Shown one piece after another: positions 1 through 14,951 of a stretch of 24,000 nucleotides of DNA. The position numbers were made by a program, and so were the translations under genes. Each line of letters opens with the position of its first letter. The stretch's first letter is position 1. The stretch covers positions 7,082-31,081 of the forward strand of contig CAYTTW010000002.1 of assembly GCA_964441005.1 (NCBI GenBank), in the 5' to 3' direction. Below the pieces are notes generated by a model. It saw only the letters and a program-made list of their open reading frames with translations, did not search any database and was not told the DNA's origin. This DNA is from an uncultured Candidatus Saccharibacteria bacterium (lineage in GTDB: Bacteria > Patescibacteriota > Saccharimonadia > Saccharimonadales > CAYTTW01).

Positions 1-3000
1 GCCTTGGAGCAATCCGGAGCCAGAGTTGACGCCGACAGCGGTGACGGCACCCGTGGAAGCTACCTGGAAGTTACCAGTTGTGCCACCAACAGATAGCAGA
101 CCCGCTGGAGTACCTGAGGTGCCAATACCGACGTTACCATTACGCTCAAAGTCAATAATTTCAGTTGTAAGTGCGGCTGCGTCAGTAAGTGAACGAATCT
201 TGAGCTGGCCGCCATTGTTAAGGATTTGGAAGTTCTTTAGATCGGTTCCTTGGTCAGAATCACGAAGCACAATGCCAGGAGTGGTTGATTCAATATGCAG
301 GGTGGCCTGAGGTGTCGTGGAACCAATACCCACATTGCCATCGGCCCGGACATAGAGGCCGTTAGTTGAGCCATTGTTGCTGGTGACTTTTAGAGCGTAC
401 TGACTTGAACTACTCGATTGGACATCGATGCTTACCCCGTTGCCGCTGGCGTTAGTACTGTCGAGGGTTGCCAACGTACCAGTACCAGCGTTGTTTACGC
501 GCAAGCCATCTACGGCACCAGAAGCTAACTGGTCAAGATTGAGGATGTAGCCACTGTCAGTACCACTGCTGGAAGGATTACGCAAGATGAGAGAATCATC
601 AGCCGTAGACAAAGTAATAAGGGTATCACTCCCATCAGCATCCGCATCATAACTTTGTTGCAAGGTTACCCCGGCTGAGTTAGTGCCACAGTTGGTAATC
701 TGAGTGGTGGTCGCGTCGCGACACAGGGCTACCGGGTTAGAACCAACACCTGGCAGGCTACCAAAACTAATGGCTCCGGCACCAGTTACTGTAAAGTTCA
801 GGCTGTTAATGAGGTTATCCCAGTTGCTATCAATGTTGATGGCGTTTTCGGTACCGGCGCCCAGTGAAGTAGGTCCTTGGAGTTTGATACCATTTTCGGT
901 GACTCCCGATACTGCTCCAGTACTAGCCCCTACAAAACGCAAACCGCTCCAAATGCCACCACTGGTGGTACCGGGGGTCAGATCAATCCGTTGGGCCGCG
1001 GCTTCAACGTTAGCGGCTCCACCGACGTAGGTTATTTGGAGGTTGTTCGCCCCGGCAGTTATTACTGGGAAGCCGGTATTATCTAACTTAACTAAATCAG
1101 CGGTCGTTTGGGCGGCAGCCGGTGTTACTAATAGAGCATTGGTTGTCGTACCTGCCCCTACTACCTGGAGGCGAGCTGTAGGCGCTGTCGTACCGATACC
1201 CAAATTTCCACCTTGTAAGAAGGAGTTACCACTTGAGGATATCTTATTAATATAAGCCGTATTTACTACTGGCTGAGCACCCGAAGGTGTAATCGAACCG
1301 GTATCTTGGTAAGTGGTAGCTGTAATCCCTGAAGCAATCAGCAGCTCACTCCCGGCAGTTCGGCCATACACTTGGTAAGAGGCCGCCCCAGTCACTGCGC
1401 TCCAGGTAATAGTTACCTTGTTGTCATTGGCTGTGGCCGTACCGGTGCCACAAACCACTGTCGCCGCGGAAGATGTTGTGGTCGTGTTACCGCTAGGATC
1501 AACTGCCACTACTTTATAAGAGTACGAGCCACCGTCTAGCAAAGTGCCGCCCGTATCCAAGTTACAAGCCGCTGACTGGCCAGTCGGGGCGGACATCCGG
1601 TTAAGTAAGATGTTATTACTGGTTTGGTCAACATAGACCTGGTCCTGAATATTACGGTAGCCAGCATTGGCGTCGCGAGCTTCTAGCATTCGAGCGTCAC
1701 TACCAGCTTCATATGCCAAGGCGTTTAATAGTACGCCCTTACCGTTATTATTCTGAGCTAGCTCACCAGTCTGATCGTGGAACCAAACACCACCTTTCTC
1801 ACTTTCGCCAATAATACCTTCTATTTTTGTTGAATCCGCTGTTAAGGTATAGAGAGTTCTAAACTGACTGCGAATCGCGGTAACGTCCTGACCAGAATCT
1901 ACACCCCCACCAATATCGGTAGCACCCGCATAATCTTGAGTGATAATGTGAGGCGGCGAAGTTACGGTTGAGGCATAAGTAGCTGAAGCGTGTCCCGAAG
2001 TAGTAACAACTGGGTAGATATTGCCGCTGGCCGTATCGTTACCAACAGTTATGACGTTCTTACCATAATTTTTCCAAAGCGAAAGCGCCTTAGCGGCCGC
2101 AGTGCTATCGACACCCCAGACCCGGAAGTCCGCAATATAGACATCATAGTCAGACGCCGCCAAGACATCAGCACTTGAGGTAAAGTCGACTGTTGCCACA
2201 ATGTAGTTATTGTTCTTTAGATATAGCCATTCATCAGCATTGCTTTCTAGGCTGGCGTTAGCGCCAAACAGCACGGCTCGGGGCTTGCGACCAATGTTTT
2301 TAACTGTATTGTAAGTAACGTCTAGGTTCCCGCCAGATAAGGTGGCTCCAGCATTGGCGACCGACAATGACACCGCCCCACCGGTAGCCGTGACAACCGA
2401 GGAAGCATGCGAGCTACCAAGATTGATAGTCTGCGCAGCACCGGTTGAAGTACCAATATTCACAGTGGTGGTGTTGGCTGTTGAACCGGTCTTACCAATG
2501 TTCACCGTTGAGTTTACGGCGTTGTTGGCAATGTTTATGGATCCACCTGAGGCTGCTTGAAGATTAATAGCATTTGTTCCGGTGCCACCCTGAATGGTTG
2601 TGACGTTGGCGACTGCCGAGCTTGAACCAATAGTTACCGTTTGCACGCCCGAGGCACCGGTGGTATCAGCAATATGAATTGTCGAAGCCGTGGTAGCCGA
2701 GCCCACCGTGCCAATGCTGATGCCAGCGTTGTTAGGGCTCACCGTAAACACATCCGTACCACCATTCTGGATGGCAAACCGGCCACCACTGGCGCTACAA
2801 GTTGTACACTGCAAGTTGAAGATAATACTGGGGTCTGTGGTCGTATCTGCTGCGTTAATTACAATGTTTTTGTTGTCGGCCAGCAGAATGGTAGCAGGGC
2901 TAGTAGAGTTATCGTACGCATTTTGAAGAGTTGTCGAAGAACCACCGCCACCGCCACAGGCGGCGTCAGTCTGATTACACAGAACCTTCACAACACCATT

Positions 3001-6000
3001 TTCTATAACTGAGAGATGGTTACTGGTTGAGTTGTAGAACAGTCCTCCGTTGAGCGCTGCCAGGTTTGTGGATGGATTAGCCGTTGCCGCGTCTACCTGC
3101 AGAATGGTGGTAGCGGTATCGGTACCGGTGGAGTTACCAACCTTGATCAGGTTACCGCCGGAAGCTGAACGAGCTGAGCTATCAGCGGTTAGCAGAGTTT
3201 CAGCCGCCGCGGAATTTTGGATCAAGAAGGCACTCGCCGAGGTCGTGGCAATAGAGGACGTACCCGTTGTTGAAATATTTCCGCCAGATGTCACCTGGAA
3301 CTGGCTAGAGGAACCAACATTAAGGGTACCGCTTGTATCAATGAGTGCTCGCTGTAAAGAGTTCGTGTAAAAAGCAATCGGCACACTTGAGCCCGCACCG
3401 CGGATTTGTAGTTGCCCGCTTTGGCCGTCTATAGAGCCGCTGCTGCCAAAGGTTTCATGAGTTTGGCCAGATCCATCAGATCCAAAGCTAATCACGCCAC
3501 CTGTAGCATTATCTTGAATTTTAAGGATGGTACTGGCACTGGTCGGGCCAACTATTCCTAACGTCGCTGCCGGACTCGCTGTACCAATACCTACCCGGCC
3601 ATTCAGGGTGTCAGCGACGAACAAGTTGCTCGTGCCAGCACTGTTCTGGATCTGGAAGGCGCTAGTTGAGTCAGACACGTTCTGGAGTGTCAGCGGATTG
3701 TTAATCGTTCCCCGCAACTGGACGGCTCCTTGGCTGGCATAGGGGGCAGCTGTGGCACCAGTGTTGAGCTCCACTGCATCGAGGAAGAATGTACCAGTAG
3801 CGGTAGAGTTAATAGAGATGGCCGTAACGTTGGTCGTCGTGGAAGTAAAGGTACAGGTATAGCGCTGGAAGCCAGTAGTCACCGGGGCTACGTAGTTAAC
3901 CAAGGTACAGGCTGGGGCGCTGCCGCCAGTAATGGCAACACTAAGCGTACCGGCGTTGGTCCCCTTCTCGGCGTAGAAACTAAAGGTGTACTGGGCAGGA
4001 GTGATGGCAGCTGTAAAGCTGGTGACGTTAGCTCCCCCACCGGCAACGGTAACGTTAACCGAGTTACTGGCGGCACCGTGATAGGTATTGGACTTGGTAG
4101 TATTACGGGTACCGGTGGCATTGGTGTAGCTCCAGCCGGTGGTAACATCCGTCTCAAAGCCCGGGTTGGTGACCAAGTTGCTGGTAGTGCTAGTATCAAC
4201 CAGGAAGATAGGCGTCCCACTGGCGTTTTGCACCTGGAAGGCCGTGGTTGAATTGGTAGGCGTCTTAAATAGTGCCCCACTGCTGTTGACATAGGCTGTG
4301 AACCCAGAGCCATTAGCACTGTTACCGACCTGAAGAGTGTTGGTGCCTGTAGCTACGTTATTAATAGTGATAGTGTCATTGCCACTAGAGTTGCCGATGT
4401 TGATGGCTTCGTTGCTGGAGCCTCCTCCCACATTGACAGTGGTAGCCGTTTGACCAATGTTGACAATGCCAGCCCCAGTAGTATCCAGCAGGAGTGTGCC
4501 AGTGCCAGTCTGTAGAACATTAGAGGTGTAAACATTGGCAAAGCGCTTAGCTGTCGAGCCCAGATCTCGAGTGTTGTCTGCTTCGGGGCCAATGTTACCC
4601 CCTACTTCGAGCTTAAAGGTGGCGGGGTTTGTTTGGTTGATGCCAAAGTTACCATTATTAAGGATGGTAGCCACTTCCGAACGCGAGGTTGCGCCATTAG
4701 GCGTTAGCTCAAATGTTAACTTGGCGCCGTTGGCTGTAGCCGTCCAGTTTTCAGCAGCGTAGGCAATAATTCCAGCAGAATTATTAAGAGTATGTGCGGC
4801 ATCGCGTGAACCGCCCAACAAGAAAACACCTAAACGGTCACCCGAAGAGATGGCAGCCCCATCGTCAGAGTAGACCCCAATGCCACCACCAGCATTAGAT
4901 GCGCTTGCAGCAGTATTGATAACACTTTCACCAACAACATTGGTATCAAATACTGTCAGTTTTGAGCTTACGCTGGTTGTGCCACCAATGCCTATACGTC
5001 CGTCTCCTCGAGCAATCAGTAAATCAGTTGCGGCATTATTAGCAGTTAGCTTCAAAGCGTACTGGCTAGAGCTGCTTGATTGGATATCAATATTCACCCC
5101 GTTGCCGCTGGCATTACTGCTATCAAGAGTGGCTAAGTTACCGGTACCAGCATTGGTAACCCGAATGTTGTCGACAGCTCCTGAGGCCAGCTGATCAAGA
5201 CTGAGAATGTAACCACTATCAGTGCCGCTGCTGGCTGGGTTGCTGAAGATTAGAGAGTCATCAGCACTGGTTAAATCAATGCGAGTGTCAGAACCGTCAG
5301 TATCGTTGCCGTATGCTTGTTGCAATGTTGTTGTTGAGCCACTTCCACCACCACAAGCGGCATCAGTCTGATTACAAAGGATTTTTACAGCGCCGTTTTC
5401 AATCACTGAGACGTGATTATTGGTGGAGTTGTAGAACAGACCACCGTTTAGGGCCGCCAAGTTAGTCGATGGATTAGCTGTCGCTGCATCAACCTGAAGG
5501 ATAGTAGTATTGGTGTCGGTGCCAGTCGAGTTGCCTACTTTTATTAAATTGCCCCCTGAAGCAGAGCGAGCAGCGGTATCGATTGACAGCAAGGTATCGG
5601 CTGCTCCAGAGTTCTGGAATAAGAAGGCAGTGGCTGAATTTGTTGTTGGCGCAAAGCTTGCCGAACCCACCGATGTTAAGTTGCCGGTGCTGGCTACCTG
5701 GAAGTTGCCAGTCGTACCGCCTACCGATAATAGTGAGGCTGGATTACCAGATGTACCAATGCCCACATTCCCAGAACTGAACAGGACGTTGGTCCATGAG
5801 CCAGCGCCACTTCCACCGCCAAAGTTAAGAGTGGTAACTTGTCCAGCAGCACCACCTGTCCCTACACGTTGCGGCGACAAGTTGGCGCTAGTGCCTTCTA
5901 CCGATAAGAATGCCGAGTCAAAATTAGACGAAGAAGCATCGTTAGCTAGCGATATCTTCGAGTTACTATTAGTGCCATTGGGGTTAAGCTGGAAACTAGC

Positions 6001-9000
6001 ACCACGGTTCGTGCTCACCGCCTTAAAATCGAGCCGATCATACGACGCCGCCGTGCCCGGAACCAGATCAATAGTATCGGTGTTAGTGCCAGTTCCTTGT
6101 AGCCTAATGCCAGTTGTGCCTGCTACCTGCAACGAGGTTGCCGGTGCCGCCGTCCCAATCCCCACCCGTCCATTCAACGTATCAGCCACAAATAGGTTGC
6201 TGGTACCAGCAGAGTTCTGGATCTGGAAGGCACTGGTGGAGTCAGTCGTATTTATGAAGCTGGTTGGTGAGGTAATGACACCATTGAGTTGAAGCGAACT
6301 TTCTTGGAAAGGTTTGGCGGTGGCAGCTACCTCAATTTGTAGGGCATCCAGGAAGAAGGTACGGGCGGAACCTGGGGCATCGGCTTCTTTCCAGTAGATG
6401 AACGTAGTGGTACCGGTGGTGGTGAAAGTACAGGTGTAGCGGGCCCAGCCCGTCGTGGGTACGGCTTGAGTAGCTAGGGTTGGACTTAGAATACAGTTGT
6501 TGTCAGAACCGTTGTTGGTACCAACTTGAAGGTTGGTGCCAAAGGCCGTACCGGCCGTCTGCATAATGGAGAAGCTGAGGGTGTAGGTGTTAGCCGCCAG
6601 AGTGCTGGCTGGGGTGTACTTAACGCCATCGCCAATGGCGGTGGAGGTCAGGGCGATCTTCTCAGAAGCACCACCAATGTAAGCTTGAGTGGTATCCCGA
6701 GCTGTTGTTCCTGTTCCCTGCTTCAGGGCCCAGTTAGTGTTGTCCGTACTTTCAATACTGGGGTTGTTGAGCGTGGTGTTGAGGGCATTGGTGTTGACCA
6801 GAACACTGTTGCTACCAATAGCGTTCTGGATTTGGAAGGCCGTGCTGGTATTAGCGACAGTTTTGAATATTGCTCCAGCACTGCTGAGGTAACTGGTCAG
6901 ACTTGAGCCATTGCTCGTGTTACCTACCTGCAGGGTATTAGTCCCAGAGCTAACGTTGTTGATAGTAACAGTGTCATTACCGGTGGAGTTGCCAATGTTG
7001 ATGGCTTCATTGGCACTACCACCACCTACGTTGACCGTAGTAGCATTGGTACCAACAGTGACTGTTCCCGCGCCAGTGGTGTCCAGGGTCAAGGTACCAG
7101 CACCGTTCTGGAGGACATTAGAGGTGTAGACATTGGCAAAGCGCTTAGCTGTCGAGCCAAGATCTCGAGTGTTATCTGCTTCAGGACCAATGTTACCGGC
7201 TACTTCCAGTTTGAAGGTGGTGGGAGTGGCTATGCCAATCCCCACCCGCTCATTGGTGGTGTCAATATCAAACACGGCGTTGGTATTGCCTGATGGCTGA
7301 ACTTGGAGGGCAGCTGTGGAGTTGGTCTTGGGCTTGAACAGGAAGGCGCTCGTGGAAGAACTGTTATTAGCAACCGTTAGGACATCAGTTCCAGCGTTCT
7401 GGACCTTAAAGACTCCACCGCCGGCGCTACAGGTGACACACTGGAGGTTGAAGACGATGTTTGGGTCGGTGGTGGTGTCGGCAGCATTAACCACAATGTT
7501 TTTGCTGTCAGCCAGGAGGATGGTTGCCGGCGATGTGGAGTTATCGTACGCCTGTTGAAGTGTTGTCGAAGAGCCACCCCCACCGCCACAAGCCGCATCA
7601 AACTTATTACAAATAATTTTCACAACGCCATTTTCTACAGCTTCTAGATGATTCGTGTTGGAGTTGTAGAATATACCACCGTTCAGTGCCGATAGGTTAG
7701 TTGAGGGATCAAGGGAAGTGGAATCAACCTGTAGAATAGTGGTGTTAGTGTCGGTGCCGGTTGAATTACCAATCTTAACGAGGTTACCACCAGAGCCAGA
7801 TCGAGCAGTGGTATCAACCGTCAAAAGTGTGTCGGCCGAGCCTGAATTTTGCACAACAAAACCAGTGGCACTGTTTGTGCCGGTAATAATGCTCTGGGTG
7901 CCACCAACGGTGATGCGTCCATTCAACGTATCCGCCACAAGTAGGTTGGTAGAACCTGTCGCGTTCTGAATCAGTAGAGCGGTTGTACTGTCACTGGTAT
8001 TTCGTATCGACAGCGGACTGGTAATAGTAGCATTGAGGTTGATGTTGCCACCACCGTAAGCGGTAGCGTTGGAGCCGGTCTCTAGTTGGACGGCATCAAT
8101 AAAGATCGTGCCAGCTCGGGCCGTGGCGTCTGACTGCTTGACGTAGATATTGCTGCTAGTGATGGTACCACCAGTGGTGAAGCTACAGACGAAGCGGGTC
8201 CAGCCAGCGTTACTCAGAGTCTGATCCTGGGTACCGTTGATCGTACAGTCAACGTCCGTACCCGAAACGTCCTGACGACCGATACGGAAAGTGGTCATGG
8301 CACCACTACTGAGTCGTGCGTAGAGGCTCAGAGTGTAAGTGGTAGCAGTACTAAACGTAAATGGTAGTTGGGCACCAGTGTTGGCAGTCGCTAAGGTAGT
8401 GATTTGGCCCGAAGCATTACCAGTGTAGAACTGAGCGGTGGAACGAGCAACGGTACCAGTTCCCTTACCGACCCAGCTGGTCAACGGGTTGGCTTCAAAG
8501 CCAGGGTTGAGGTTGGCGAGTAAGTTAGAGTCCGTGGTGTCAACGCCGAAGATGGGGGCTGCAATGGCGTTCTGGACTTGGAAAGCAGTGGCGGTGTTGG
8601 TGTTGGTCTTCACAATAGTACCTGCCGACGCACTGTTCGTAATCAGGTTAATATTACCAGTCCCCCCTTGAATGGTGGTGGTACTGGCATTGGCTGTGCT
8701 ACCAATCGTCACCAAATTAGTACCACTCCCTGTTGGGGTGCCATCGGCAATGTGCACGGTGTTACCACCAGCTACAGTGGTAGGGTTAGTCGCAATGTTG
8801 ATGGTATCTACGGCAGCATTAGCTGTACCTGTAGTGTTGCCAATGTTGATGCTTCGGGCCGCTGCTGGGTTGATGTTGCCAAGGTCAATCTGGTTGACCC
8901 GAGTGTTGTCGCCAAGCTTCAGGATACCGGTGCCCGCTGTACCCACACCTGAGAGGATGTTGACGTTAATCGCGGTACCAGCACCAGCTCCGTTACCAAT

Positions 9001-9915
9001 GTTGATGGTCTGGGTGTTACCAGAAGCGACCGTTGCAGAACCAATAGAGATAGTGTTGGAGACGGTGGATTGACCGACGGTGATTTGACCACCCAAAGAA
9101 GTGCCACCAATGGTAATGGCGTTGGCGGTACCTGTGCCGAGCGAAAGTGTTGCGGCCGTAGCGGTATCAAGGAGGGGGGTTAGAATTGAGGTGTTCGCTC
9201 TTCCCGTTCCCGAAATGCGAAAATCAGCTGTTTGATCTGAGCCACTTTGATTTTGAATGTAATTGGCCGAGCCGCTAGTAGGAGCAAATCCACAGTTAGT
9301 GCTGGTACGAATACAAAGCGTGCCCCCTTCATCTGGCAGTAAAATGCTGTTGGCGGCACTTTGCGTCGCGAAGTCTAGGGTGCTCGTGTTAACACCTGTC
9401 AGTTTGGCCAGCTGACCAGCGCGAAAAGCGTATGGTACCGCCGTGAGTTTCAAGCGTGGGCTCATTTCGCCGTCCCAACTGGCCGAAACACCCGAGCCAC
9501 CGATGTTCATAGTGAGCCAGAGGTCCTGATCCCACTTAATCGTACTCGGGAAGGCGGTTACAGACCCCAGATCAGCAGTCAAGTAACCATTGACTAAACG
9601 CACCAGGTTGCCGGTAGTTCTGGTTTCTGTCCAGAGACAGTTAGCATCACCAGTACAGGAACCTTGGCTGGAGCCCGACGAACTTGAAGCATTAAACAGT
9701 TTAAATTCAATGTGGTAGTTGCCATCCGGCACCACCGAACCGCTACCAGTTAATAGTCGTGCTTGAAAGTTCAAGGTAGATGAGGTGGCGGCACTGGCTA
9801 CTTGAGTGTTTGATGGCCGAATGAGCGGAATCAGGATGCCCAACACCAAGGCGACACTGATGGCTATCAGGTACCGAGCGAACAGTACTCGTTTGAGAGG
9901 TGTTTTTACGGACAT
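1..9915 (-). CDS. Giant secreted/cell-surface modular repeat protein; 5' end complete, 3' end beyond the left window edge (>=3,305 aa)
   Basis: ATG 9915-9913 is preceded by an in-frame TAA (9918-9916). Hand translation of the reverse complement of every 60-nt row from 9915 to 1 gave 3,305 sense codons and no stop. No minus-strand ORF in the track shares this frame. The sequence is protein-like with coherent repeats throughout. It is missing from the track, presumably because no stop codon lies inside the window. Confidence 0.9.
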   Translation of the reverse strand, partial: MSVKTPLKRVLFARYLIAISVALVLGILIPLIRPSNTQVASAATSSTLNFQARLLTGSGSVVPDGNYHIEFKLFNASSSSGSSQGSCTGDANCLWTETRTTGNLVRLVNGYLTADLGSVTAFPSTIKWDQDLWLTMNIGGSGVSASWDGEMSPRLKLTAVPYAFRAGQLAKLTGVNTSTLDFATQSAANSILLPDEGGTLCIRTSTNCGFAPTSGSANYIQNQSGSDQTADFRISGTGRANTSILTPLLDTATAATLSLGTGTANAITIGGTSLGGQITVGQSTVSNTISIGSATVASGNTQTINIGNGAGAGTAINVNILSGVGTAGTGILKLGDNTRVNQIDLGNINPAAARSINIGNTTGTANAAVDTINIATNPTTVAGGNTVHIADGTPTGSGTNLVTIGSTANASTTTIQGGTGNINLITNSASAGTIVKTNTNTATAFQVQNAIAAPIFGVDTTDSNLLANLNPGFEANPLTSWVGKGTGTVARSTAQFYTGNASGQITTLATANTGAQLPFTFSTATTYTLSLYARLSSGAMTTFRIGRQDVSGTDVDCTINGTQDQTLSNAGWTRFVCSFTTGGTITSSNIYVKQSDATARAGTIFIDAVQLETGSNATAYGGGNINLNATITSPLSIRNTSDSTTALLIQNATGSTNLLVADTLNGRITVGGTQSIITGTNSATGFVVQNSGSADTLLTVDTTARSGSGGNLVKIGNSTGTDTNTTILQVDSTSLDPSTNLSALNGGIFYNSNTNHLEAVENGVVKIICNKFDAACGGGGGSSTTLQQAYDNSTSPATILLADSKNIVVNAADTTTDPNIVFNLQCVTCSAGGGVFKVQNAGTDVLTVANNSSSTSAFLFKPKTNSTAALQVQPSGNTNAVFDIDTTNERVGIGIATPTTFKLEVAGNIGPEADNTRDLGSTAKRFANVYTSNVLQNGAGTLTLDTTGAGTVTVGTNATTVNVGGGSANEAINIGNSTGNDTVTINNVSSGTNTLQVGNTSNGSSLTSYLSSAGAIFKTVANTSTAFQIQNAIGSNSVLVNTNALNTTLNNPSIESTDNTNWALKQGTGTTARDTTQAYIGGASEKIALTSTAIGDGVKYTPASTLAANTYTLSFSIMQTAGTAFGTNLQVGTNNGSDNNCILSPTLATQAVPTTGWARYTCTFTTTGTTTFIYWKEADAPGSARTFFLDALQIEVAATAKPFQESSLQLNGVITSPTSFINTTDSTSAFQIQNSAGTSNLFVADTLNGRVGIGTAAPATSLQVAGTTGIRLQGTGTNTDTIDLVPGTAASYDRLDFKAVSTNRGASFQLNPNGTNSNSKISLANDASSSNFDSAFLSVEGTSANLSPQRVGTGGAAGQVTTLNFGGGSGAGSWTNVLFSSGNVGIGTSGNPASLLSVGGTTGNFQVASTGNLTSVGSASFAPTTNSATAFLFQNSGAADTLLSIDTAARSASGGNLIKVGNSTGTDTNTTILQVDAATANPSTNLAALNGGLFYNSTNNHVSVIENGAVKILCNQTDAACGGGSGSTTTLQQAYGNDTDGSDTRIDLTSADDSLIFSNPASSGTDSGYILSLDQLASGAVDNIRVTNAGTGNLATLDSSNASGNGVNIDIQSSSSSQYALKLTANNAATDLLIARGDGRIGIGGTTSVSSKLTVFDTNVVGESVINTAASASNAGGGIGVYSDDGAAISSGDRLGVFLLGGSRDAAHTLNNSAGIIAYAAENWTATANGAKLTFELTPNGATSRSEVATILNNGNFGINQTNPATFKLEVGGNIGPEADNTRDLGSTAKRFANVYTSNVLQTGTGTLLLDTTGAGIVNIGQTATTVNVGGGSSNEAINIGNSSGNDTITINNVATGTNTLQVGNSANGSGFTAYVNSSGALFKTPTNSTTAFQVQNASGTPIFLVDTSTTSNLVTNPGFETDVTTGWSYTNATGTRNTTKSNTYHGAASNSVNVTVAGGGANVTSFTAAITPAQYTFSFYAEKGTNAGTLSVAITGGSAPACTLVNYVAPVTTGFQRYTCTFTSTTTNVTAISINSTATGTFFLDAVELNTGATAAPYASQGAVQLRGTINNPLTLQNVSDSTSAFQIQNSAGTSNLFVADTLNGRVGIGTASPAATLGIVGPTSASTILKIQDNATGGVISFGSDGSGQTHETFGSSGSIDGQSGQLQIRGAGSSVPIAFYTNSLQRALIDTSGTLNVGSSSQFQVTSGGNISTTGTSSIATTSASAFLIQNSAAAETLLTADSSARSASGGNLIKVGNSTGTDTATTILQVDAATANPSTNLAALNGGLFYNSTSNHLSVIENGVVKVLCNQTDAACGGGGGSSTTLQNAYDNSTSPATILLADNKNIVINAADTTTDPSIIFNLQCTTCSASGGRFAIQNGGTDVFTVSPNNAGISIGTVGSATTASTIHIADTTGASGVQTVTIGSSSAVANVTTIQGGTGTNAINLQAASGGSINIANNAVNSTVNIGKTGSTANTTTVNIGTSTGAAQTINLGSSHASSVVTATGGAVSLSVANAGATLSGGNLDVTYNTVKNIGRKPRAVLFGANASLESNADEWLYLKNNNYIVATVDFTSSADVLAASDYDVYIADFRVWGVDSTAAAKALSLWKNYGKNVITVGNDTASGNIYPVVTTSGHASATYASTVTSPPHIITQDYAGATDIGGGVDSGQDVTAIRSQFRTLYTLTADSTKIEGIIGESEKGGVWFHDQTGELAQNNNGKGVLLNALAYEAGSDARMLEARDANAGYRNIQDQVYVDQTSNNILLNRMSAPTGQSAACNLDTGGTLLDGGSYSYKVVAVDPSGNTTTTSSAATVVCGTGTATANDNKVTITWSAVTGAASYQVYGRTAGSELLIASGITATTYQDTGSITPSGAQPVVNTAYINKISSSGNSFLQGGNLGIGTTAPTARLQVVGAGTTTNALLVTPAAAQTTADLVKLDNTGFPVITAGANNLQITYVGGAANVEAAAQRIDLTPGTTSGGIWSGLRFVGASTGAVSGVTENGIKLQGPTSLGAGTENAINIDSNWDNLINSLNFTVTGAGAISFGSLPGVGSNPVALCRDATTTQITNCGTNSAGVTLQQSYDADADGSDTLITLSTADDSLILRNPSSSGTDSGYILNLDQLASGAVDGLRVNNAGTGTLATLDSTNASGNGVSIDVQSSSSSQYALKVTSNNGSTNGLYVRADGNVGIGSTTPQATLHIESTTPGIVLRDSDQGTDLKNFQILNNGGQLKIRSLTDAAALTTEIIDFERNGNVGIGTSGTPAGLLSVGGTTGNFQVASTGAVTAVGVNSGSGLLQG
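43..141 (-). repeat. Module E, copy 2 (aa 3259-3291)
   Basis: NGNVGIGTSGTPAGLLSVGGTTGNFQVASTGAV matches aa 1381-1413. Confidence 0.75.
316..669 (-). repeat. Module C2, copy 2 (aa ~3083-3200)
   Basis: VTLQQSYDADADGSDTLITLSTADDSLILRNPSSSGTDSGYILNLDQLASGAVDGLRVNNAGTGTLATLDSTNASGNGVSIDVQSSSSSQYALKVTSNN...ADGNVGIGS. Confidence 0.8.
1273..1533 (-). other. FN3/Ig-like beta-sandwich region (aa ~2795-2881)
   Basis: GGSYSYKVVAVDPSGNTTTTSSAATVVCGTGTATANDNKVTITWSAVTGAASYQVYGRTAGSELLIASGITATTYQDTGS. V-T-I-T-W-S-A-V-T-G-A-x-S-Y-x-V-Y and T-Y-x-D-T-G are typical bacterial FN3 strand motifs. Confidence 0.55.
1621..2340 (-). other. Unique non-repetitive alpha/beta domain inside the giant protein (aa ~2526-2765); fold unassigned
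   Basis: RKPRAVLFGANASLESNADEWLYLKNNNYIVATVDFTSSADVLAASDYDVYIADFRVWGVDSTAAAKALSLWKNYGKNVITVGNDT...GGVWFHDQTG...GKGVLLNALAYEAGSDARMLEARDANAGY. Hydrophobic strands alternate with amphipathic helices. It has more charged and aromatic residues than the rest of the protein and contains no Cys. Confidence 0.5.
2341..2739 (-). repeat. Second I-x-I-G / Gly-Thr-Asn short-repeat tract (aa ~2393-2525)
   Basis: ISIGTVGSATTASTIHIADTTGASGVQTVTIGSSSAVANVTTIQGGTGTNAINLQAASGGSINIANNAVNSTVNIGKTGSTANTTTVNIGTSTGAAQTINLGSS. Confidence 0.55.
2740..2946 (-). repeat. Module C1, copy 2 (aa ~2324-2392)
   Basis: SSTTLQNAYDNSTSPATILLADNKNIVINAADTTTDPSIIFNLQCTTCSASGGRFAIQNGGTDVFTV. Confidence 0.75.
2947..3240 (-). repeat. 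Module B, copy 3 (aa ~2226-2323)
   Basis: SASAFLIQNSAAAETLLTADSSARSASGGNLIKVGNSTGTDTATTILQVDAATANPSTNLAALNGGLFYNSTSNHLSVIENGVVKVLCNQTDAACGGGGG. Confidence 0.8.
3586..3720 (-). repeat. Post-CBM linker module A, copy 3
   Basis: QLRGTINNPLTLQNVSDSTSAFQIQNSAGTSNLFVADTLNGRVGIGT. Confidence 0.7.
3736..4182 (-). other. CBM4/9-like beta-sandwich domain, copy 3 (aa ~1912-2060)
   Basis: NLVTNPGFETDVTTGWSYTNATGTRNTTKSNTYHGAASNSV...AQYTFSFYAEKG...PACTLVNY...TTGFQRYTCTFTS...GTFFLDAVELNTG. Confidence 0.6.
4183..4662 (-). repeat. Module D (tail-fibre-like), copy 2 (aa ~1752-1911)
   Basis: NGNFGINQTNPATFKLEVGGNIGPEADNTRDLGSTAKRFANVYTSNVLQTGTGTLLLDTTGAGIVNIGQTATTVNVGGGSSNEAINIGNSSGNDTITINNVATGTNTLQVGNSANGSG... 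Confidence 0.8.
4981..5340 (-). repeat. Module C2, copy 1 (aa ~1526-1645)
   Basis: TTTLQQAYGNDTDGSDTRIDLTSADDSLIFSNPASSGTDSGYILSLDQLASGAVDNIRVTNAGTGNLATLDSSNASGNGVNIDIQSSSSSQYALKLTANN...GDGRIGIGG aligns with 316-669. Confidence 0.8.
5347..5640 (-). repeat. Module B, copy 2 (aa ~1426-1523)
   Basis: NSATAFLFQNSGAADTLLSIDTAARSASGGNLIKVGNSTGTDTNTTILQVDAATANPSTNLAALNGGLFYNSTNNHVSVIENGAVKILCNQTDAACGGG. Confidence 0.8.
5677..5775 (-). repeat. Module E, copy 1 (aa 1381-1413)
   Basis: SGNVGIGTSGNPASLLSVGGTTGNFQVASTGNL versus NGNVGIGTSGTPAGLLSVGGTTGNFQVASTGAV at 43-141. Confidence 0.75.
6160..6294 (-). repeat. Post-CBM linker module A, copy 2
   Basis: LQLNGVITSPTSFINTTDSTSAFQIQNSAGTSNLFVADTLNGRVGIGT. 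Confidence 0.7.
6316..6780 (-). other. CBM4/9-like beta-sandwich domain, copy 2 (aa ~1046-1200)
   Basis: NNPSIESTDNTNWALKQGTGTTARDTTQAYIGGASEKI...NTYTLSFSIMQ...NNCILSP...TTGWARYTCTFTTTG...ARTFFLDALQIEVA. Confidence 0.6.
6781..7260 (-). repeat. Module D (tail-fibre-like), copy 1 (aa ~886-1045)
   Basis: NERVGIGIATPTTFKLEVAGNIGPEADNTRDLGSTAKRFANVYTSNVLQNGAGTLTLDTTGAGTVTVGTNATTVNVGGGSANEAINIGNSTGNDTVTINNVSSGTNTLQVGNTSNGSS... The copy at 4183-4662 is offset by exactly 2,598 nt. Confidence 0.8.
7366..7575 (-). repeat. Module C1, copy 1 (aa ~781-850)
   Basis: SSTTLQQAYDNSTSPATILLADSKNIVVNAADTTTDPNIVFNLQCVTCSAGGGVFKVQNAGTDVLTV is near-identical in protein to 2740-2946. Confidence 0.75.
7576..7872 (-). 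repeat. Module B, copy 1 (aa ~682-780)
   Basis: ATGFVVQNSGSADTLLTVDTTARSGSGGNLVKIGNSTGTDTNTTILQVDSTSLDPSTNLSALNGGIFYNSNTNHLEAVENGVVKIICNKFDAACGGGGG. Confidence 0.75.
7912..8040 (-). repeat. Post-CBM linker module A, copy 1
   Basis: NLNATITSPLSIRNTSDSTTALLIQNATGSTNLLVADTLNGRITVGG aligns with copies at 6160-6294 and 3586-3720. Confidence 0.7.
8056..8520 (-). other. CBM4/9-like carbohydrate-binding-type beta-sandwich domain, copy 1 (aa ~466-620)
   Basis: NLNPGFEANPLTSWVGKGTGTVARSTAQFYTGNASGQI...TYTLSLYARLSS...DCTING...AGWTRFVCSFTT...IFIDAVQLETG. Pattern is N-P-G-F-E..W near the start, Y-x-[LF]-S-x-[YI] in the middle, G-W-x-R-[FY]-x-C-x-F, and F-[FI]-[LI]-D-A-[VL]-[QE]-[LI] at the end. Confidence 0.6.
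8542..9198 (-). repeat. Tract of short imperfect I-x-I-G / Gly-Thr-Asn repeats (beta-helix-like), aa ~240-458
   Basis: LSLGTGTANAITIGGTSLGGQITVGQSTVSNTISIGSATVASGNTQTINIGNGAGAGTAINVNIL...SINIGNTTGTANAAVDTINIA...TVHIADG...LVTIGSTANASTTTIQGGTGNINLI. Confidence 0.55.
9406..9780 (-). other. Non-repetitive N-terminal globular domain of the giant protein (aa ~46-170)
   Basis: STLNFQARLLTGSGSVVPDGNYHIEFKLF...SCTGDANCLW...LWLTMNIGG...EMSPRLKLTAVPYAFRA. The alternating beta-strand-like pattern occurs only once in the window. Confidence 0.5.
9790..9915 (-). other. Predicted Sec signal peptide / N-terminal anchor of the giant protein (aa 1-42)
   Basis: MSVKTPLKRVLFARYLIAISVALVLGILIPLIRPSNTQVASA|A has a basic n-region (K4,K8,R9,R14), a ~19-residue hydrophobic core and an A-S-A motif before the putative cleavage site. 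Confidence 0.65.
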
Positions 9916-10277
9916 TTAATTTGTTTGGTTTTGGTTTTGCCGGTCAATCACGACCTAGTTACGTGAACTCTTTCGTGACCTAATTTTTGTTTTGGCAAAT
10001 ACCTAGCTTCAATTATCGAGGTATATCAGGGGTAAAACAAGCAGTTTTTGAGCAAAAATAGGACTCTAATTTTAAAGCTAAAATCTCTATTATTTTTACC
10101 TCGTAGTGTTGTGCTAATTAGCACCCTTCCGATTTTTGTCGGTGTTAGCCACTTCAAGGACAGAATCTACCTCTATTAATTATGGCATTTATCGTTGTGT
10201 ATATGATAACAGTCGACTAAAATCAGTGATTTTTATCCACAAGAGGTGACGAAATTGAGCACTTAATTTATCTACTT

Positions 10278-10586
10278 TTAACTGATCTTGGTAATTTTGA
10301 TTTGAGTGTGACGCTGGCGATGACCATGCACTTTTTTAACACGCTTCTTGGCCTTATAACGAATAGCTGTCACCTTTTCGGCCTTAACTTCCGGTTCTAG
10401 AATGCTCGCGGTCACCTTTGCACCTTCTACCGCTGGTGTGCCAACCTTGACGGTGGTGCCATCGATAGTCAAAAGTGCGTCAAAAGCCAGACTTTTTTGA
10501 TCCCCAGCCAGTAAATCAACCAACAGTGTATCGCCCTCACTAACGAGGTATTGTTTACCACCACTGGAGATAACTGCTTTTTTCAT
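10278..10586 (-). CDS. rplU: 50S ribosomal protein L21
   Basis: MKKAVISSGGKQYLVSEGDTLLVDLL...KVTAIRYKAKKRVKKVHGHRQRHTQIKITKIS is the L21 pattern. I chose ATG 10586 (AAGGGA ~10 nt upstream) rather than the track's TTG at 10634. Confidence 0.9.
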   Translation of the reverse strand: MKKAVISSGGKQYLVSEGDTLLVDLLAGDQKSLAFDALLTIDGTTVKVGTPAVEGAKVTASILEPEVKAEKVTAIRYKAKKRVKKVHGHRQRHTQIKITKIS

Positions 10587-10679
10587 TAAATACAATCCCT
10601 TGATCTTGTGTAGCGCTTCGGGTGCGAAGCTCAATAAGTACCGACCGAGTCTAACAGATTACGGCCCCTGTGTAAACCT

Positions 10680-13600
10680 TTAGACTTTTGCCACAGCAAT
10701 CTTAACTTCCAGGCCCTCTACCTTAACGGTTGTGCGGTATGCATCGGCTGAAACTTCGCCAAACTCTTCGGTCAGAGTTTCGGATAGAATCGTGGCTTGA
10801 TGATTTTCAATAGCCTGTTGGATTTCAATACTATCTGTTTCAATCAGTAGAGCTATCCGATCTTCCACATTTAGCCCAGCCTGCTTACGCGCGTTTTGAA
10901 CCGAGCGAACCAGCTCACGCATAATACCCTCTTCCCGCAGCTCTTCGGTCACGTTAAAGTCAATTTCAATCTGATATAACTGAGCAAAGTTGTGCTCTTC
11001 CCAGTTCTGGCCAAATGTTTTTTCTGGATCTACATGTTTCTCATCAATCACCAGTTCTTTGACGTTCAATTCATCTTTCACGATCTCCAGTAAATCAGCC
11101 GGAAAATCCTTATATGTGCCCCTGAGTGTTGCTTTCGCCAGTGGTTGACGAACCTTAACGCCTTGTTCAGCTCGTAAGCCTAGTCCTATGGCAACCACGT
11201 GCCGGATAGCCGCCATCTGGTAGAGAAGATCTTTATCTACCTCGCCTGACGGCGGCCAATCTAACAGATGCACTGATTCTCCACCAGTTAGCTTTCGGTA
11301 TAGCTCTTCGGCCATGAAAGGTGTAAAGGGTGCCAAAATCATACTGAGCCGCACCAGCACGTAGTGCAGAGTGCGATAGGCGTCATCTTTATCTGAATCA
11401 AAGATAGGGTGACCCTGGGCTTGCATCTGAGCGTCGGAGTGGTCTTCTCCTCGAGAAGCGGAAGTAGGTGTAGGTGAACTACTGCTACTGAGCATCGGAG
11501 AGGAAAGGCCGCTTCCGGCGCCAGAAGTGTCGTCCAAGCGAGTGGCTTGGCCACTTGATTGGTCGGCACGGTGCATGCTCCAGGGCTTCCAGAAACGGCG
11601 GCGCGAGCGGCGTACAAACCAGTTAGAGGCGTCATCCAGAAACGGTAATACTGGTTTGAGGGCATTTGGAATATCATAGCTATCCATACTCTTTTGGACT
11701 TCGGCTGTGAGGCTATGAACCCGCGAGATGATCCATCTGTCCAACGGATTGCTTAGTGTCTTCAAGGGGTCATCGAGTGTACCATCCCATTCCCAGCCGT
11801 CTACCGAAGCATAAAGTGTAAAGAAGTCATACATGTTCCACACCATGTTCAACTTGCGAAACACATCAGCCACATCTTTATCCTGCAATGAGTAATCTTC
11901 ACCATTCAGCAAGGGTGAACTAAGCAGCAGGAACCTTAGGGCGTCAGCTGAATACTCATCCATGAGTTCATTAGGATCAGTATAGTTACCATACGATTTG
12001 CTCATCTTACGGCCGTCGTTACCCGCTATCGTCCCTGTTACAATAACGTTTTTAAATGAATTGTTGTCAAAAAGTCCTACGCCGACGGCGTGGAGATAGT
12101 AAAACCAGGCGCGGACCTGAGCCACATACTCAGCAATGAAATCGCCAGGGAAGCTTTGTTCAAATTTCTCTCTATTCTCAAAAGGGTAATGAAACTGAGC
12201 AAAGGGCATTGAGCCTGCCTCAAACCAGCTATCCATAACCTTATCGATACGCTTGTATTCGAGGCCATCTATTGTGAAGGTTACATCATCAATCCATGGT
12301 CGGTGATAATCCTCGAGTTCTACCCCTGACAACTCCTTTAGTTCAGCGTAGCTACCGATTACTTTGACATGTTCTTTCCCCTCCCTGTCAACCGCCTTCC
12401 AAATTGGCATCGCCGTCGCCCAAAAACGGTCACGTGACAGATTCCAGTCAGGCGCATTCTCTACTGTCTTCTCAAAGCGACCATGTTTGATGTGAGCCGG
12501 AAACCACGTAATTGGCTCGTTCTTCGATAACATCGTGCTACGCTGACCCTCAATATCCATAAACCAACTGGGGTGAGCACGGTACATGAGTTTGGTGTTG
12601 CAACGATGACAATGGGGGTATGGATGGGTTATATACTCGATCTTCCAGACCACTCCCCGCTGATGCAGCGTCCTCGCGATCTCTTTATTTATATCCCATA
12701 CCAGCTGGCCTTTCCACTCTCCCTTGGTGTACAGCCCTTTCTCATCGGTATCGATAAACATAGGGATCTTGTGTCGCTGTGCCAACAGGTAGTCATCTTC
12801 ACCGTAGGCTGGCGACTCGTGGGCAATGCCGGTACCTTCCTCGGTATGTACAAAATCAGCGTGCCAGACCTTGAAGGCGGTGTCTCCGACATCCTTGTAG
12901 GTATCAAACAGCGGTTCATAACTCTTGCCAACTAGTTCGGAGCCCTGAAATGTCCGAATTATCTTAAAAGGCACAACGTTGTGTTTTTCATCAGTTAAGA
13001 CTCTCTCAAGAAGTTCTTTTGCCAGGATGAGTGTAGTACCATCCACATCAACTTCGGCATACTCCACCTCTTTGTTAATGGCGATAGCCGAATTTGAAGG
13101 CAGCGTCCAAGGTGTCGTTGTCCAGGCTAGCAAATACTTGGCTTCCCCAACTAGCTTAAACTTGACGTAGACCGAGGGATCGGTGTCTTCCTGGTATGAG
13201 TTATCCATGGCAATTTCAGCTTTCGCCAGGGGTGTTTCATCGCGCGTGCAGTACAACAGTACTTTCTCACCTTCATAAATCTTACCCTTGTCAAAAAGCT
13301 GCTTGAAGGCCCACCAAACCGATTCCATATAGGGCTTATCCATAGTCTTATAGGCGCCCTGAAAGTCCACCCAGCGACCAATCCGAGCAATCGTGTCTTC
13401 CCAGAGGTTCCCAGTGAGTACCATATTGTCACGGCAGGCCTTAATGTAGTCTTCGAGCGAGATTTTGGTGCCGATCTCTGTTTTGTCTTTAATCCCTAGC
13501 TTTTTCTCGGTGTAAACTTCAGCCGGCAGACCATGACAATCCCAGCCCCAGACTCGTTCCACGCGCTTACCTTTCATGGTCCAGTAGCGTGGAACAGCAT

Positions 13601-14053: not shown

Positions 14054-14080
14054 TATACTATGCTTAGAAAATCCAGTCAT
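14052..14080 (-). promoter_or_regulatory. Candidate promoter for the ileS leader
   Basis: Minus strand ATGACT (14080-14075), 17 nt spacer, TATAAT (14057-14052). Confidence 0.35.
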
Positions 14081-14644
14081 CGGCAGGCACCAGCACATCA
14101 GCAAGAGCTTCACCCAACCCCTGATACTCGGCAAGTAGCAATTGATGAGGCTACGAGTCGGTACCGCAACTTAGCGGCCAAAGCTGGTAGTGAGGCTGCC
14201 AAAAGAGTCTTTGAGGCCAAGGCCGCTGAAGCGGCCGCAAACGCCAGCAAAGCTTATGAAGCCGCGCAGGCTTTTACGGCCGAACACCTACCCGGTGTGC
14301 TCCACAACCTGACGCGTTTCCAGGAACAAAAGCAACCGGTGGGTCTTATTCTCACGCTCGATGAACCCATCACACAAGATCTCGTGCAAGCCACTCGGGA
14401 GGCAGCTGGCGTTGACCCCGAGCAGCTAAAGCAGTTTGTGGGTAAAGTTATCCTGCCCGAGTTCTTAATGCCAACCCTTAATATTAGCAGTCCAGAGGTT
14501 AATGCCTACAGAGTCATTGATGGCCCCATGGCTATGGGTGGCATTCTGCGCGAGGTGGCTATTCACTTTAGTAACCACGCGGTAAGTCCACCCGTCGAGT
14601 ACAACCAAATGGTTTTGCTAGCCCTACCCGAACAACAGGGCTAA
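14060..14644 (+). CDS. Hypothetical protein (194 aa), Ala/Glu-rich helical N-terminal half
   Basis: Track ORF. It is the only long ORF in this interval. I recognised no family and saw no signal peptide. Confidence 0.6.
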   Translation: MLRKSSHRQAPAHQQELHPTPDTRQVAIDEATSRYRNLAAKAGSEAAKRVFEAKAAEAAANASKAYEAAQAFTAEHLPGVLHNLTRFQEQKQPVGLILTLDEPITQDLVQATREAAGVDPEQLKQFVGKVILPEFLMPTLNISSPEVNAYRVIDGPMAMGGILREVAIHFSNHAVSPPVEYNQMVLLALPEQQG

Positions 14645-14648
14645 GTAA

Positions 14649-14951
14649 TTACTGCTCTTCAGCTATGGGTTGTTCTTGAGTATTACTAGAGCCAGCATAA
14701 GCTGCCACTTCATCCATCAAGGGTAGCGGTTCACCTTCCCACTGATTCAGCACCTGCCCATCACTTCTGAGGGCCAGAATAGCCGGATACTGAACCACGC
14801 CATAGAGATTAGCTGCATCAGCTCCTGCTTGGGTTTCGAGGTCTAGGAGTTCCACGGTGCTTTCTGGTGAGCGCCGTTGAAAGTGGCGCACATAGTCTTC
14901 AACCACACGCGTATGCTCAGAGTTGGCATGGTACAGAATAACCACTTTCAT
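14649..14951 (-). CDS. Thioredoxin-fold protein lacking the CxxC motif (100 aa)
   Basis: MKVVILYHANSEHTRVVEDYV...GVVQYPAILALRSDGQVL shows a beta1-alpha1 start and a cis-Pro-type YPA loop as in Trx/Grx/NrdH, but the protein has no cysteine. Confidence 0.6.
   Translation of the reverse strand: MKVVILYHANSEHTRVVEDYVRHFQRRSPESTVELLDLETQAGADAANLYGVVQYPAILALRSDGQVLNQWEGEPLPLMDEVAAYAGSSNTQEQPIAEEQ

Follow-up and report, generated by a model that had tools for sequence, protein, structure and literature searches.

A candidate giant extracellular fibre encoded next to rplU in Saccharibacteria

How Patescibacteria find and hold their hosts is largely open, and only type IV pili and a few adhesins have been named as molecular players. 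Cultured Saccharibacteria are obligate epibionts on Actinobacteria, and transposon sequencing (Tn-seq) showed type IV pili to be necessary to them, along with several adhesins that carry glycan-binding domains. Here we ask what is encoded by a giant open reading frame (ORF) at one end of a 24,000-nt stretch of DNA from an uncultured Candidatus Saccharibacteria bacterium (GCA_964441005.1, contig CAYTTW010000002.1, positions 7,082 to 31,081), referred to below as the window. The reading that we favour, with a probability of roughly 0.65, is that the ORF encodes the N-terminal part, of 3,305 residues or more, of a giant extracellular fibre of a Saccharimonadales-type bacterium, in or very near the class of trimeric β-helical adhesive fibres exemplified by the mosaic adhesive trimers (MATs) of Bdellovibrio and by S74-type phage fibres.

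The first issue was whether the frame is real. Minus-strand translation of window positions 9918 to 1 gave a stop codon followed by 3,305 sense codons without interruption to nt 1. This reproduced the original prediction, made from the letters of the window, of a frame opened by the ATG at 9915-9913, and the TAA that it placed directly upstream in frame was read at 9918-9916. The absence of the ORF from the ORF track had been put down to the lack of a stop codon within the window; the ORF list does skip ORFs that run off the stretch, and for positions 1-9915 it holds only ORFs of 80-260 amino acids (aa) that are on the plus strand or off-frame. At about 50% G+C the probability of such an open frame is (61/64)^3305, or approximately e^-158, and thus the frame is not a product of chance. 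The start codon is backed by homologues with similar N-termini, e.g. MIKQTPLKRVLLARAY. The G+C content of the gene was about 0.51, equal to that of the flanks, and scans for tandem DNA repeats and for tRNAs were both empty. Dispersed DNA repeats were only 66-78% identical, and paired copies of the modules described below were 76-84% identical in protein and 68-73% identical in DNA, with synonymous sites near saturation. The ratio of nonsynonymous to synonymous substitution rates (dN/dS) between internal modules was 0.04-0.12, and the internal duplications are therefore old and have been kept by purifying selection. Together, the length of the frame, the diverged repeats and these ratios rule out a chance ORF or an assembly artefact, and the giant ORF is real and under purifying selection.

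The encoded protein is dominated by T (14.7%), G (11.9%), A (11.3%), S (10.7%) and N (9.1%), and charged residues are few (196 D+E and 130 K+R), in agreement with the composition first described. The mature part within the window has a mass of about 327 kDa and an isoelectric point (pI) of 4.5. The 24 cysteines all group into 12 close pairs, a distribution to be expected of an extracytoplasmic protein, and the pairs would fit disulfide-bonded extracellular domains. The 3′ end of the gene lies beyond nt 1. When metagenome contigs were scanned with the last 300 aa for a leftward extension, only relatives of 62-63% identity were found and not the source contig. A second route to an extension, through ribosomal protein L21 encoded next to the giant gene, led no further than a 1,013-nt Logan contig for the 102-aa version with an ATG start, and the 118-aa version with a TTG start was unmatched. 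At the edge of the window, the final 45 residues run parallel to aa 1381-1417, a stretch that passes into one of the recurring modules (module B, below), and at least one further module probably follows off-window.

The N-terminus had been thought to look like a Sec signal, and a rule-based reading of the n-, h- and c-regions agreed with this. The n-region contains K4, K8, R9 and R14, the h-region extends over 18 hydrophobic residues from Y15 to I32, and the c-region ends in A40-S41-A42, followed by A43. The signal-peptide pattern is conserved across homologues, as are A42 and the residues after it. The signal peptide is followed by a conserved 133-aa domain, for which the AlphaFold2 (AF2) model had a predicted local distance difference test score (pLDDT) above 90 over the domain and contained eight strands. 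The consensus of this domain reads T-x-S-T-L-N-F-Q-A-R-L-L ... V-P-D-G-x-Y ... L-W-T-E-T-R ... N-G-Y ... W-D-G-E-M. The model had no significant fold match in PDB or BFVD, and the domain had no Pfam match. This domain (aa 43-175) is the signature of the family and presumably its cell-proximal anchor.

Beyond this domain the protein resembles the stalk of a fibre. The regularly spaced rungs of the first stalk segment (Table 1) suggest a β-helix or β-roll, and the remainder carries two repeat motifs. The first motif was reported as nine copies of G-x-[VIF]-G-I-[GN]..P...L.V.G. With a loosened pattern we also found nine, eight with G-x-[VIFL]-G-I-[GN] and one variant with E-R-V-G-I-G-I, compared to 0.04-0.47 expected from 1,000 shuffles, but a letter-exact search with the reported spacing gave only four matches. 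The second motif, A-[FL]-x-[IVF]-Q-N, is real, with eight exact copies and two variants compared to 0.10 expected in shuffles, but it occurs about 10 times and not in the dozen or so copies first counted.

The nine copies of the first motif are spread between aa 890 and 3275, and this motif is the published capping-loop motif of MATs and S74-type fibres. MATs have a signal peptide and a conserved β-rich N-terminal domain of about 130 aa, both described for all 21 Bdellovibrio MATs, followed by an intertwined trimeric β-helix stalk and by swapped tips that are S74 chaperone/protease domains or lectin-like folds (Caulton et al. 2024, PMC10769870). Their capping-loop consensus is V-G-G/N-pi-x-x-P-x-x-x-L, which is also present in S74-type phage fibres and in MyRF, and the supplementary list of loops includes NVGIGATAPTAKLE, LVGIGTPAPAVPLQ and NVGVGVGAPTAKMD (PMC10769870). 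The capping loops in the window are near-identical to listed loops such as NVGIGATAPTAKLE; compare NLGIGTTAPTARLQV and NVGIGSTTPQATLHI. When the whole 3,305-aa protein was searched against PDB sequences, the sole match was 8ON4, which comprises residues 914-1151 of the Bdellovibrio MAT fibre Bd1334. A PDB sequence search at a wider threshold gave nothing beyond 8ON4, a family profile of the Bd1334-like segment gave no long matches in related loci, and a homologue search with the 88-aa Bd1334 stretch gave no full-length Bd1334 candidate. The original association of the motifs with tail-fibre-like proteins is now backed by the identity of the first motif with the published capping loop, by the 8ON4 match and by S74 domains in some orthologues.

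The body of the protein is built of large modules that recur two to three times in a self-BLAST, including a unit with a carbohydrate-binding module (CBM) that is present three times. A motif that includes a pair of cysteines, L-L-x-L-D ... G-x-[MIL]-[YF]-Y-N ... C-[YN] ... W/A-x-C-G-G-G, recurs in module B; no Pfam model matches it, and it also occurs in the consensus of the C-termini of many relatives.

Globular domains are inserted in the stalk: three domains of the CBM_4_9 type, one with a glutamine-amidotransferase (GATase) fold and one resembling FN3. For the GATase-fold insert, an AF2 model based on an alignment of 11 related sequences had pLDDT above 90 over residues 1-200, and Foldseek matched it to class I glutamine amidotransferase subunits in PDB (E 1e-5, target-normalised template modelling score 0.65-0.69). 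The insert is without any cysteine and therefore lacks the canonical nucleophile; W2711, H2713 and D2714 (W-x-H-D) are invariant or nearly so. Its relatives amounted to only 11 cluster representatives among 1.84 billion, ten of which are parts of larger proteins (624-3,217 aa; several resemble fibres) and one of which is a 209-aa protein. Some of these relatives carry DUF4815-like phage-type N-termini.

Domains of this kind could belong to a secreted or wall-bound polysaccharide-processing enzyme or scaffold, with single-chain depolymerase-like β-helices that CBM_4_9 domains target to a substrate for nutrient scavenging rather than adhesion. The three CBM_4_9 domains, an FN3-like domain of a type common to SGNH/GDSL esterase-type proteins and the conserved His-Asp of the GATase-fold domain would suit such a protein, and phage tailspikes with similar stalks are often depolymerases. 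However, searches of the 3,305 residues with Pfam, NCBIfam and PHROGs detected no catalytic domain of a glycoside hydrolase, lyase or esterase, NCBIfam and PHROGs giving no matches of any kind, the GATase-fold domain is without a nucleophile cysteine, and the tips of orthologues are binding-type domains. We consider an enzyme or scaffold of this type decidedly unlikely.

The fibre interpretation gains from a comparison across Saccharibacteria. With the first 323 residues as a query we obtained 124 homologues at E≤1e-5, all of 565 aa or less; those that carry a name are assigned to Candidatus Saccharimonadales, Saccharibacteria or Patescibacteria, and nearly all those named by NCBI are flagged 'partial'. 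A scan of one genome per species in GTDB r232, with an 8-sequence N-terminal alignment as query, gave 164 relatives, from which 78 loci were kept, almost all in Saccharibacteria metagenome-assembled genomes (MAGs) together with two complete chromosomes, CP025011 and OY970327. The source species is not among the representatives, because the housekeeping proteins of the window are at most about 80% identical to those of any representative. The complete relatives without N-runs (n=40) were 914-3,400 aa long with a median of about 1,900, and two more relatives exceed 3,564 aa and run to the edge of the 10-kb flank. The C-termini fell into several unrelated classes. In the last 450 aa of the 40 complete relatives, Pfam identified Peptidase_S74 in three (E 2.8e-16; confirmed in L076), CBM_4_9 in four, Kelch, Laminin_G_3 and DUF4082 in two each, and H_lectin and Gly_rich_2 in one each. 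Modules of the window protein reappear elsewhere in the family, module B in 11 loci, module D in 4, the CBM unit in 13 and the FN3 domain in 6, and the GATase-fold insert recurs in none of the related loci. Most loci have one copy of the gene; four loci have two, in tandem or a few kb apart, and in some genomes a separate contig carries a second copy. Such variation in length and tip would be expected if the molecule serves recognition and diversifies through the shuffling of modules. An attachment or host-interaction structure, as originally proposed, would fit both the presence of three CBM_4_9 domains and the lectin-like tips seen in orthologues.

Some sequences in these scans had unexpected labels or matches. 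Two contigs labelled Nevskiaceae/Chlamydiae, L005 (DATLCF010000002.1) and L062 (CAJCIR010000037.1), showed Saccharibacteria-type synteny, with housekeeping genes 66-79% identical to those of the window, and fragments labelled Ktedonobacteraceae, Verrucomicrobiae and Nitrososphaera (the short contigs behind P0030, P0040, P0074 and P0084) carry the N-terminal domain of the family. All of these contigs and fragments look like mis-binned or mislabelled Saccharibacteria DNA. In two Microflora Danica MAGs, L032 and L049, the matches to ribonucleotide reductase (and in L032 also those to isoleucyl-tRNA synthetase (IleRS)) were split in 5-6 pieces with shifted coordinates, which suggests assembly errors of the frameshift type or insertions, and long ORFs in records of this kind, among them the fibre ORF of more than 3,564 aa in L049, need care.

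The gene had been placed in a housekeeping neighbourhood, and the genes upstream on the same strand indeed encode L21, IleRS, a class II ribonucleotide reductase (RNR), NrdR, FtsZ, FtsA, methionine aminopeptidase and adenylate kinase. The order FtsZ-NrdR-RNR-small ORF-IleRS-L21-fibre found in the window was present in more than 50 related loci, and the giant gene is therefore a positional orthologue conserved throughout the class, lying directly downstream of rplU in more than 50 Saccharibacteria species. On the 3′ side of the fibre gene, two relatives, L005 (13058-17928) and L025 (14752-17723), have a small unannotated ORF, parA, parB, signal peptidase I and a LytR-CpsA-Psr (LCP) wall-polymer ligase.

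A tail-fibre-like protein might also be encoded by a prophage, a tailocin or another mobile element lying in the chromosome. The tail-fibre-like motifs and the S74 domains in relatives are in line with this, as are two short local matches, the only ones in a tblastn search against 50,697 phage genomes, of aa 887-934 to a cyanophage virion structural protein and of the FN3-like domain to a hypothetical protein of phiRSL1. In contrast, the protein has a signal peptide and no PHROG match, the neighbours in the 24-kb window include no phage genes, the G+C content equals that of the flanks, more than 50 species have the gene in the same place between rplU and parAB, and no relatives were found on IMG/VR contigs. 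A mobile-element origin is very improbable, being largely refuted by the housekeeping neighbours, the conserved synteny and the absence of IMG/VR relatives.

A trimeric autotransporter adhesin is suggested by the JGI name of homologue P0010 ('trimeric autotransporter adhesin'), by the mention of an autotransporter adhesin in the T. rhizospherense genome that holds orthologue L025 (Starr et al. 2018), and by the short x-I-x-I-G rungs in the stalk. However, the last 450 aa of the 40 complete relatives contained no YadA-type C-terminal β-barrel anchor, and the 3,305 aa contained no YadA head or stalk Pfam domains. Saccharibacteria are moreover regarded as monoderm, without an outer membrane for a β-barrel anchor. 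With no YadA-type anchor among the 40 complete relatives, an autotransporter is essentially excluded.

The most serious alternative, which we consider unlikely, is an S-layer or envelope-sheath protein, i.e. an abundant structural protein, anchored to the wall by its conserved N-terminal domain, whose variable exposed part would build a lattice and not discrete fibres. The acidic pI of 4.5, the richness in T/S/G/N/A and the scarcity of charged residues would all suit such a protein, as would the combination of a conserved N-terminal domain with a variable remainder. The gene is also usually present in one copy at a fixed locus by a ribosomal protein gene, which hints at high expression, and ultra-small groundwater cells of the candidate phyla radiation (CPR) have been reported with an S-layer. 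On the other hand, neither Pfam nor NCBIfam detected an SLH or other known S-layer domain, a length of at least 3,300 residues and lectin-type tips are atypical for S-layer proteins, and the capping loops, the homology to the stalk of a solved fibre and the occurrence of the S74 trimer chaperone among orthologues all favour fibres.

We thus return to the trimeric fibre. Trimeric assembly is suggested by the S74 chaperones in 3/40 complete relatives, since these act in trimeric β-helix folding, and to our knowledge the S74 domain works only in trimeric β-helix assembly. Several observations weigh against a fibre of this class. The 8ON4 match is modest at 22 bits and covers 89/3,305 residues, and no S74 domain or lectin tip is seen in the 3,305 residues present (Pfam gave no Peptidase_S74 match), the place for either being the off-window C-terminus. 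CBM_4_9 domains are also found in secreted glycanases. Saccharibacteria are monoderm and MATs were defined in a diderm bacterium, so the mode of anchoring may differ. Membership among MATs would hinge on homology of the N-terminal domain and on trimerisation. On balance, the protein is probably a MAT-like surface fibre, trimeric and binding host glycans, and it is a strong candidate for how Saccharibacteria grip host cells.

In the model that we propose, the protein would be exported by Sec, the signal peptide would be cleaved after A42, and the conserved N-terminal domain would retain the protein at the cell envelope. Three chains would then intertwine into a long stalk of β-helix modules with capping loops in between, the loops and the homology to a MAT stalk being observed. 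The globular domains, i.e. three CBM_4_9, the GATase-fold and the FN3-like domain, are present in the protein, and they would project along the stalk. A variable distal tip, off-window, and the CBMs would bind glycans on the surface of the host bacterium. MATs measure about 550 Å for the 922 aa of Bd3182 and about 145 Å for 370 aa of Bd2133 (PMC10769870), and scaling from the MAT models would give a reach of approximately 100-200 nm, so that the fibre could provide the epibiont with both target specificity and reach. The features of the giant ORF and its locus are collected in Table 1.

Table 1. Features of the giant ORF and the adjoining locus, in window coordinates
Feature	Residues (aa)	Window position	Strand	Evidence and remarks
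Giant ORF	codons 1-3305	1..9915	-	3′ end beyond nt 1; true length at least 3,305 aa
Signal peptide	1-42	9790..9915	-	Rule-based reading; A42 conserved in at least 90% of homologues
Conserved β-rich N-terminal domain (133 aa)	43-175	9391..9789	-	124 homologues and AF2 model
Stalk segment 1	176-445	8581..9390	-	12 x-[ILV]-x-[ILV]-G rungs, 10-16 residue period; common to 50 related loci
CBM_4_9 domain 1	469-594	8134..8511	-	Pfam PF02018, E 6.7e-13, 49.6 bits
Module B copy 1	663-892	7240..7929	-	Paired cysteines C769/C776, C826/C829; 54-78% identical to copies 2 and 3
Module C copy 1	844-1020	6856..7386	-	Capping loop and DLGSTAKRFANVYT motif; 81% identical to copy 2, dN/dS 0.086
Capping loop 1, RVGIGIATPTTFKLE	890-904	7204..7248	-	Motif match
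CBM_4_9 domain 2	1048-1170	6406..6774	-	Pfam E 3.2e-6, 28.0 bits, above 25.9-bit cutoff; 39-43% identical to domain 1
Capping loop 2, RVGIGTAAPATSLQV	1250-1264	6124..6168	-	Motif match
Capping loop 3, NVGIGTSGNPASLLS	1383-1397	5725..5769	-	Motif match
Module B copy 2	1411-1580	5176..5685	-	Self-BLAST
Module D copy 1	1521-1647	4975..5355	-	Weak Pfam DUF3244 match; 75% identical to copy 2
Capping loop 4, RIGIGGTTSVSSKLT	1640-1654	4954..4998	-	Motif match; degenerate, without Pro
Segment homologous to Bdellovibrio MAT fibre Bd1334 (PDB 8ON4)	1688-1776	4588..4854	-	phmmer E 1.4e-4, 22 bits
Module C copy 2	1705-1885	4261..4803	-	Self-BLAST
Capping loop 5, NFGINQTNPATFKLE	1756-1770	4606..4650	-	Motif match; within Bd1334-like segment
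CBM_4_9-like domain 3	1912-2031	3823..4182	-	Pfam 18.7 bits, below cutoff; 36-43% identical to domains 1 and 2 (self-BLAST)
Capping loop 6, RVGIGTASPAATLGI	2107-2121	3553..3597	-	Motif match
Module B copy 3	2209-2446	2578..3291	-	Self-BLAST; dN/dS 0.12 vs copy 1
GATase-fold insert	2545-2755	1651..2283	-	AF2 and Foldseek
FN3-like domain	2775-2890	1246..1593	-	41-47% identical to domains of SGNH-esterase-type and hypothetical proteins; weak GH85_C match
Capping loop 7, NLGIGTTAPTARLQV	2904-2918	1162..1206	-	Motif match
Module D copy 2	3076-3201	313..690	-	Self-BLAST
Capping loop 8, NVGIGSTTPQATLHI	3194-3208	292..336	-	Motif match
Capping loop 9, NVGIGTSGTPAGLLS	3261-3275	91..135	-	Motif match; sequence after it parallels module B start
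AT-rich 362-nt spacer, rplU to giant gene		9916..10277	-	One promoter-like site (10117-10089)
rplU (ribosomal protein L21)		10278..10586	-	Conserved upstream neighbour, locus marker across Saccharibacteria

The family is easy to locate via rplU, and it is giant and hypervariable, with the hallmarks of the fibres by which phages and Bdellovibrio recognise their targets. It is also systematically under-annotated, with database copies that are nearly all truncated and 'partial' and ORF callers that drop copies running off contigs. We tentatively propose that the rplU-adjacent fibre gene could be the main host-range determinant of Saccharibacteria, a cellular counterpart of the phage receptor-binding protein, with exchange of stalk modules and tips as its source of diversity. 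In the same speculative vein, MAT-type fibres might be equipment common to bacteria that are unrelated but all live on other bacteria, whether as diderm predators or as monoderm CPR epibionts, and the cysteine-less GATase-fold insert might be a new ligand-binding or enzymatic head. If fibres do set the host range, tips found in metagenomes could predict the hosts of uncultured Saccharibacteria, and this role would be open to the genetics now available for the phylum.

The remainder of the locus had features of its own. The 362-nt spacer contained no terminator-like site, no Rfam match and no obvious Shine-Dalgarno sequence before the ATG, and the G+C content of the 10001-11000 bin was 0.43 compared to about 0.51 in the giant gene. 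The gene after rplU is not its usual partner, rpmA (L27), and an E. coli L27 query in tblastn gave no L27 gene anywhere in the window, nor up to 10 kb from the fibre gene in any of the 78 related loci. A 100-aa ORF between the RNR and IleRS genes (14649-14951, minus strand) had no Pfam match, and more than 40 related loci have it in the corresponding place. The 194-aa ORF at 14060-14644 on the plus strand also had no Pfam match and matched none of the related loci; it may be lineage-specific or spurious. Where its catalytic domain gives way to the anticodon-binding domain, IleRS has a low-complexity stretch rich in S/T/P/G that includes HRADQSSGQATRLDDTSGAGSGLSSPMLSSSSSPTPTSASRGEDHSDAQMQAQGH (residues ~737-797, window ~11406-11588), and in most related loci the IleRS tblastn matches were split in two around it, which suggests a lineage-specific insertion.

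The closest systems within Saccharibacteria are the essential adhesins with VCBS, dockerin and FN3 domains that Tn-seq identified in Southlakia epibionticum (Wang et al. 2023, PMC10633639). As would hold for the protein described here, they are extracellular Saccharibacteria proteins with glycan-binding domains and are proposed to target host-cell glycans for adhesion, but their domain sets are different and the paper describes no fibre, MAT or S74 features (PMC10633639). The literature that we searched contained no paper linking MAT fibres to Saccharibacteria. S74-type phage fibres and tailspikes, such as T5 pb1 and the K1F endosialidase, share the capping-loop motif, and the family further resembles them by Peptidase_S74 in three orthologues and by short matches to phage structural proteins. 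In contrast to these, the window gene is cellular, encodes a signal peptide, lies in a housekeeping locus without virion genes nearby, and is far longer than phage fibres typically are.

The comparison with the Bdellovibrio MATs (Bd1334, Bd2133 and Bd3182) goes further in both directions. MATs are about 1,000 aa long, whereas the window protein extends to at least 3,305 aa and the longest complete relative to 3,400 aa, and the CBM_4_9, GATase-fold and FN3-like domains are found along the stalk and not only at the tip. The gene usually occurs as one copy at the rplU-adjacent locus, unlike the 21 dispersed MAT paralogues. Its owner is a monoderm Patescibacterium, a group that is absent from the cross-phylum table of MAT-bearing lineages, which lists Oligoflexia, Micavibrio, Omnitrophica, the FCB group and others and in which the longest protein has 1,915 aa (PMC10769870). 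What is new here is thus a MAT- or tail-fibre-like architecture of three times the size, in which globular domains interrupt the stalk and which is encoded at a conserved locus of the chromosome in a monoderm CPR lineage. The two families are alike in that a signal peptide is followed by a conserved β-rich N-terminal domain of about 130 aa, which in both is without a PDB fold match, and in that the stalk carries V-G-[GI]-[GN]-x-x-x-P-x-x-x-L capping loops and is similar in sequence between the window protein and Bd1334. In both, a conserved N-terminus is combined with swapped C-terminal tips (S74 chaperone, lectin-like or β-sandwich), and in both, the bacterium that owns the protein lives by attaching to other bacteria.

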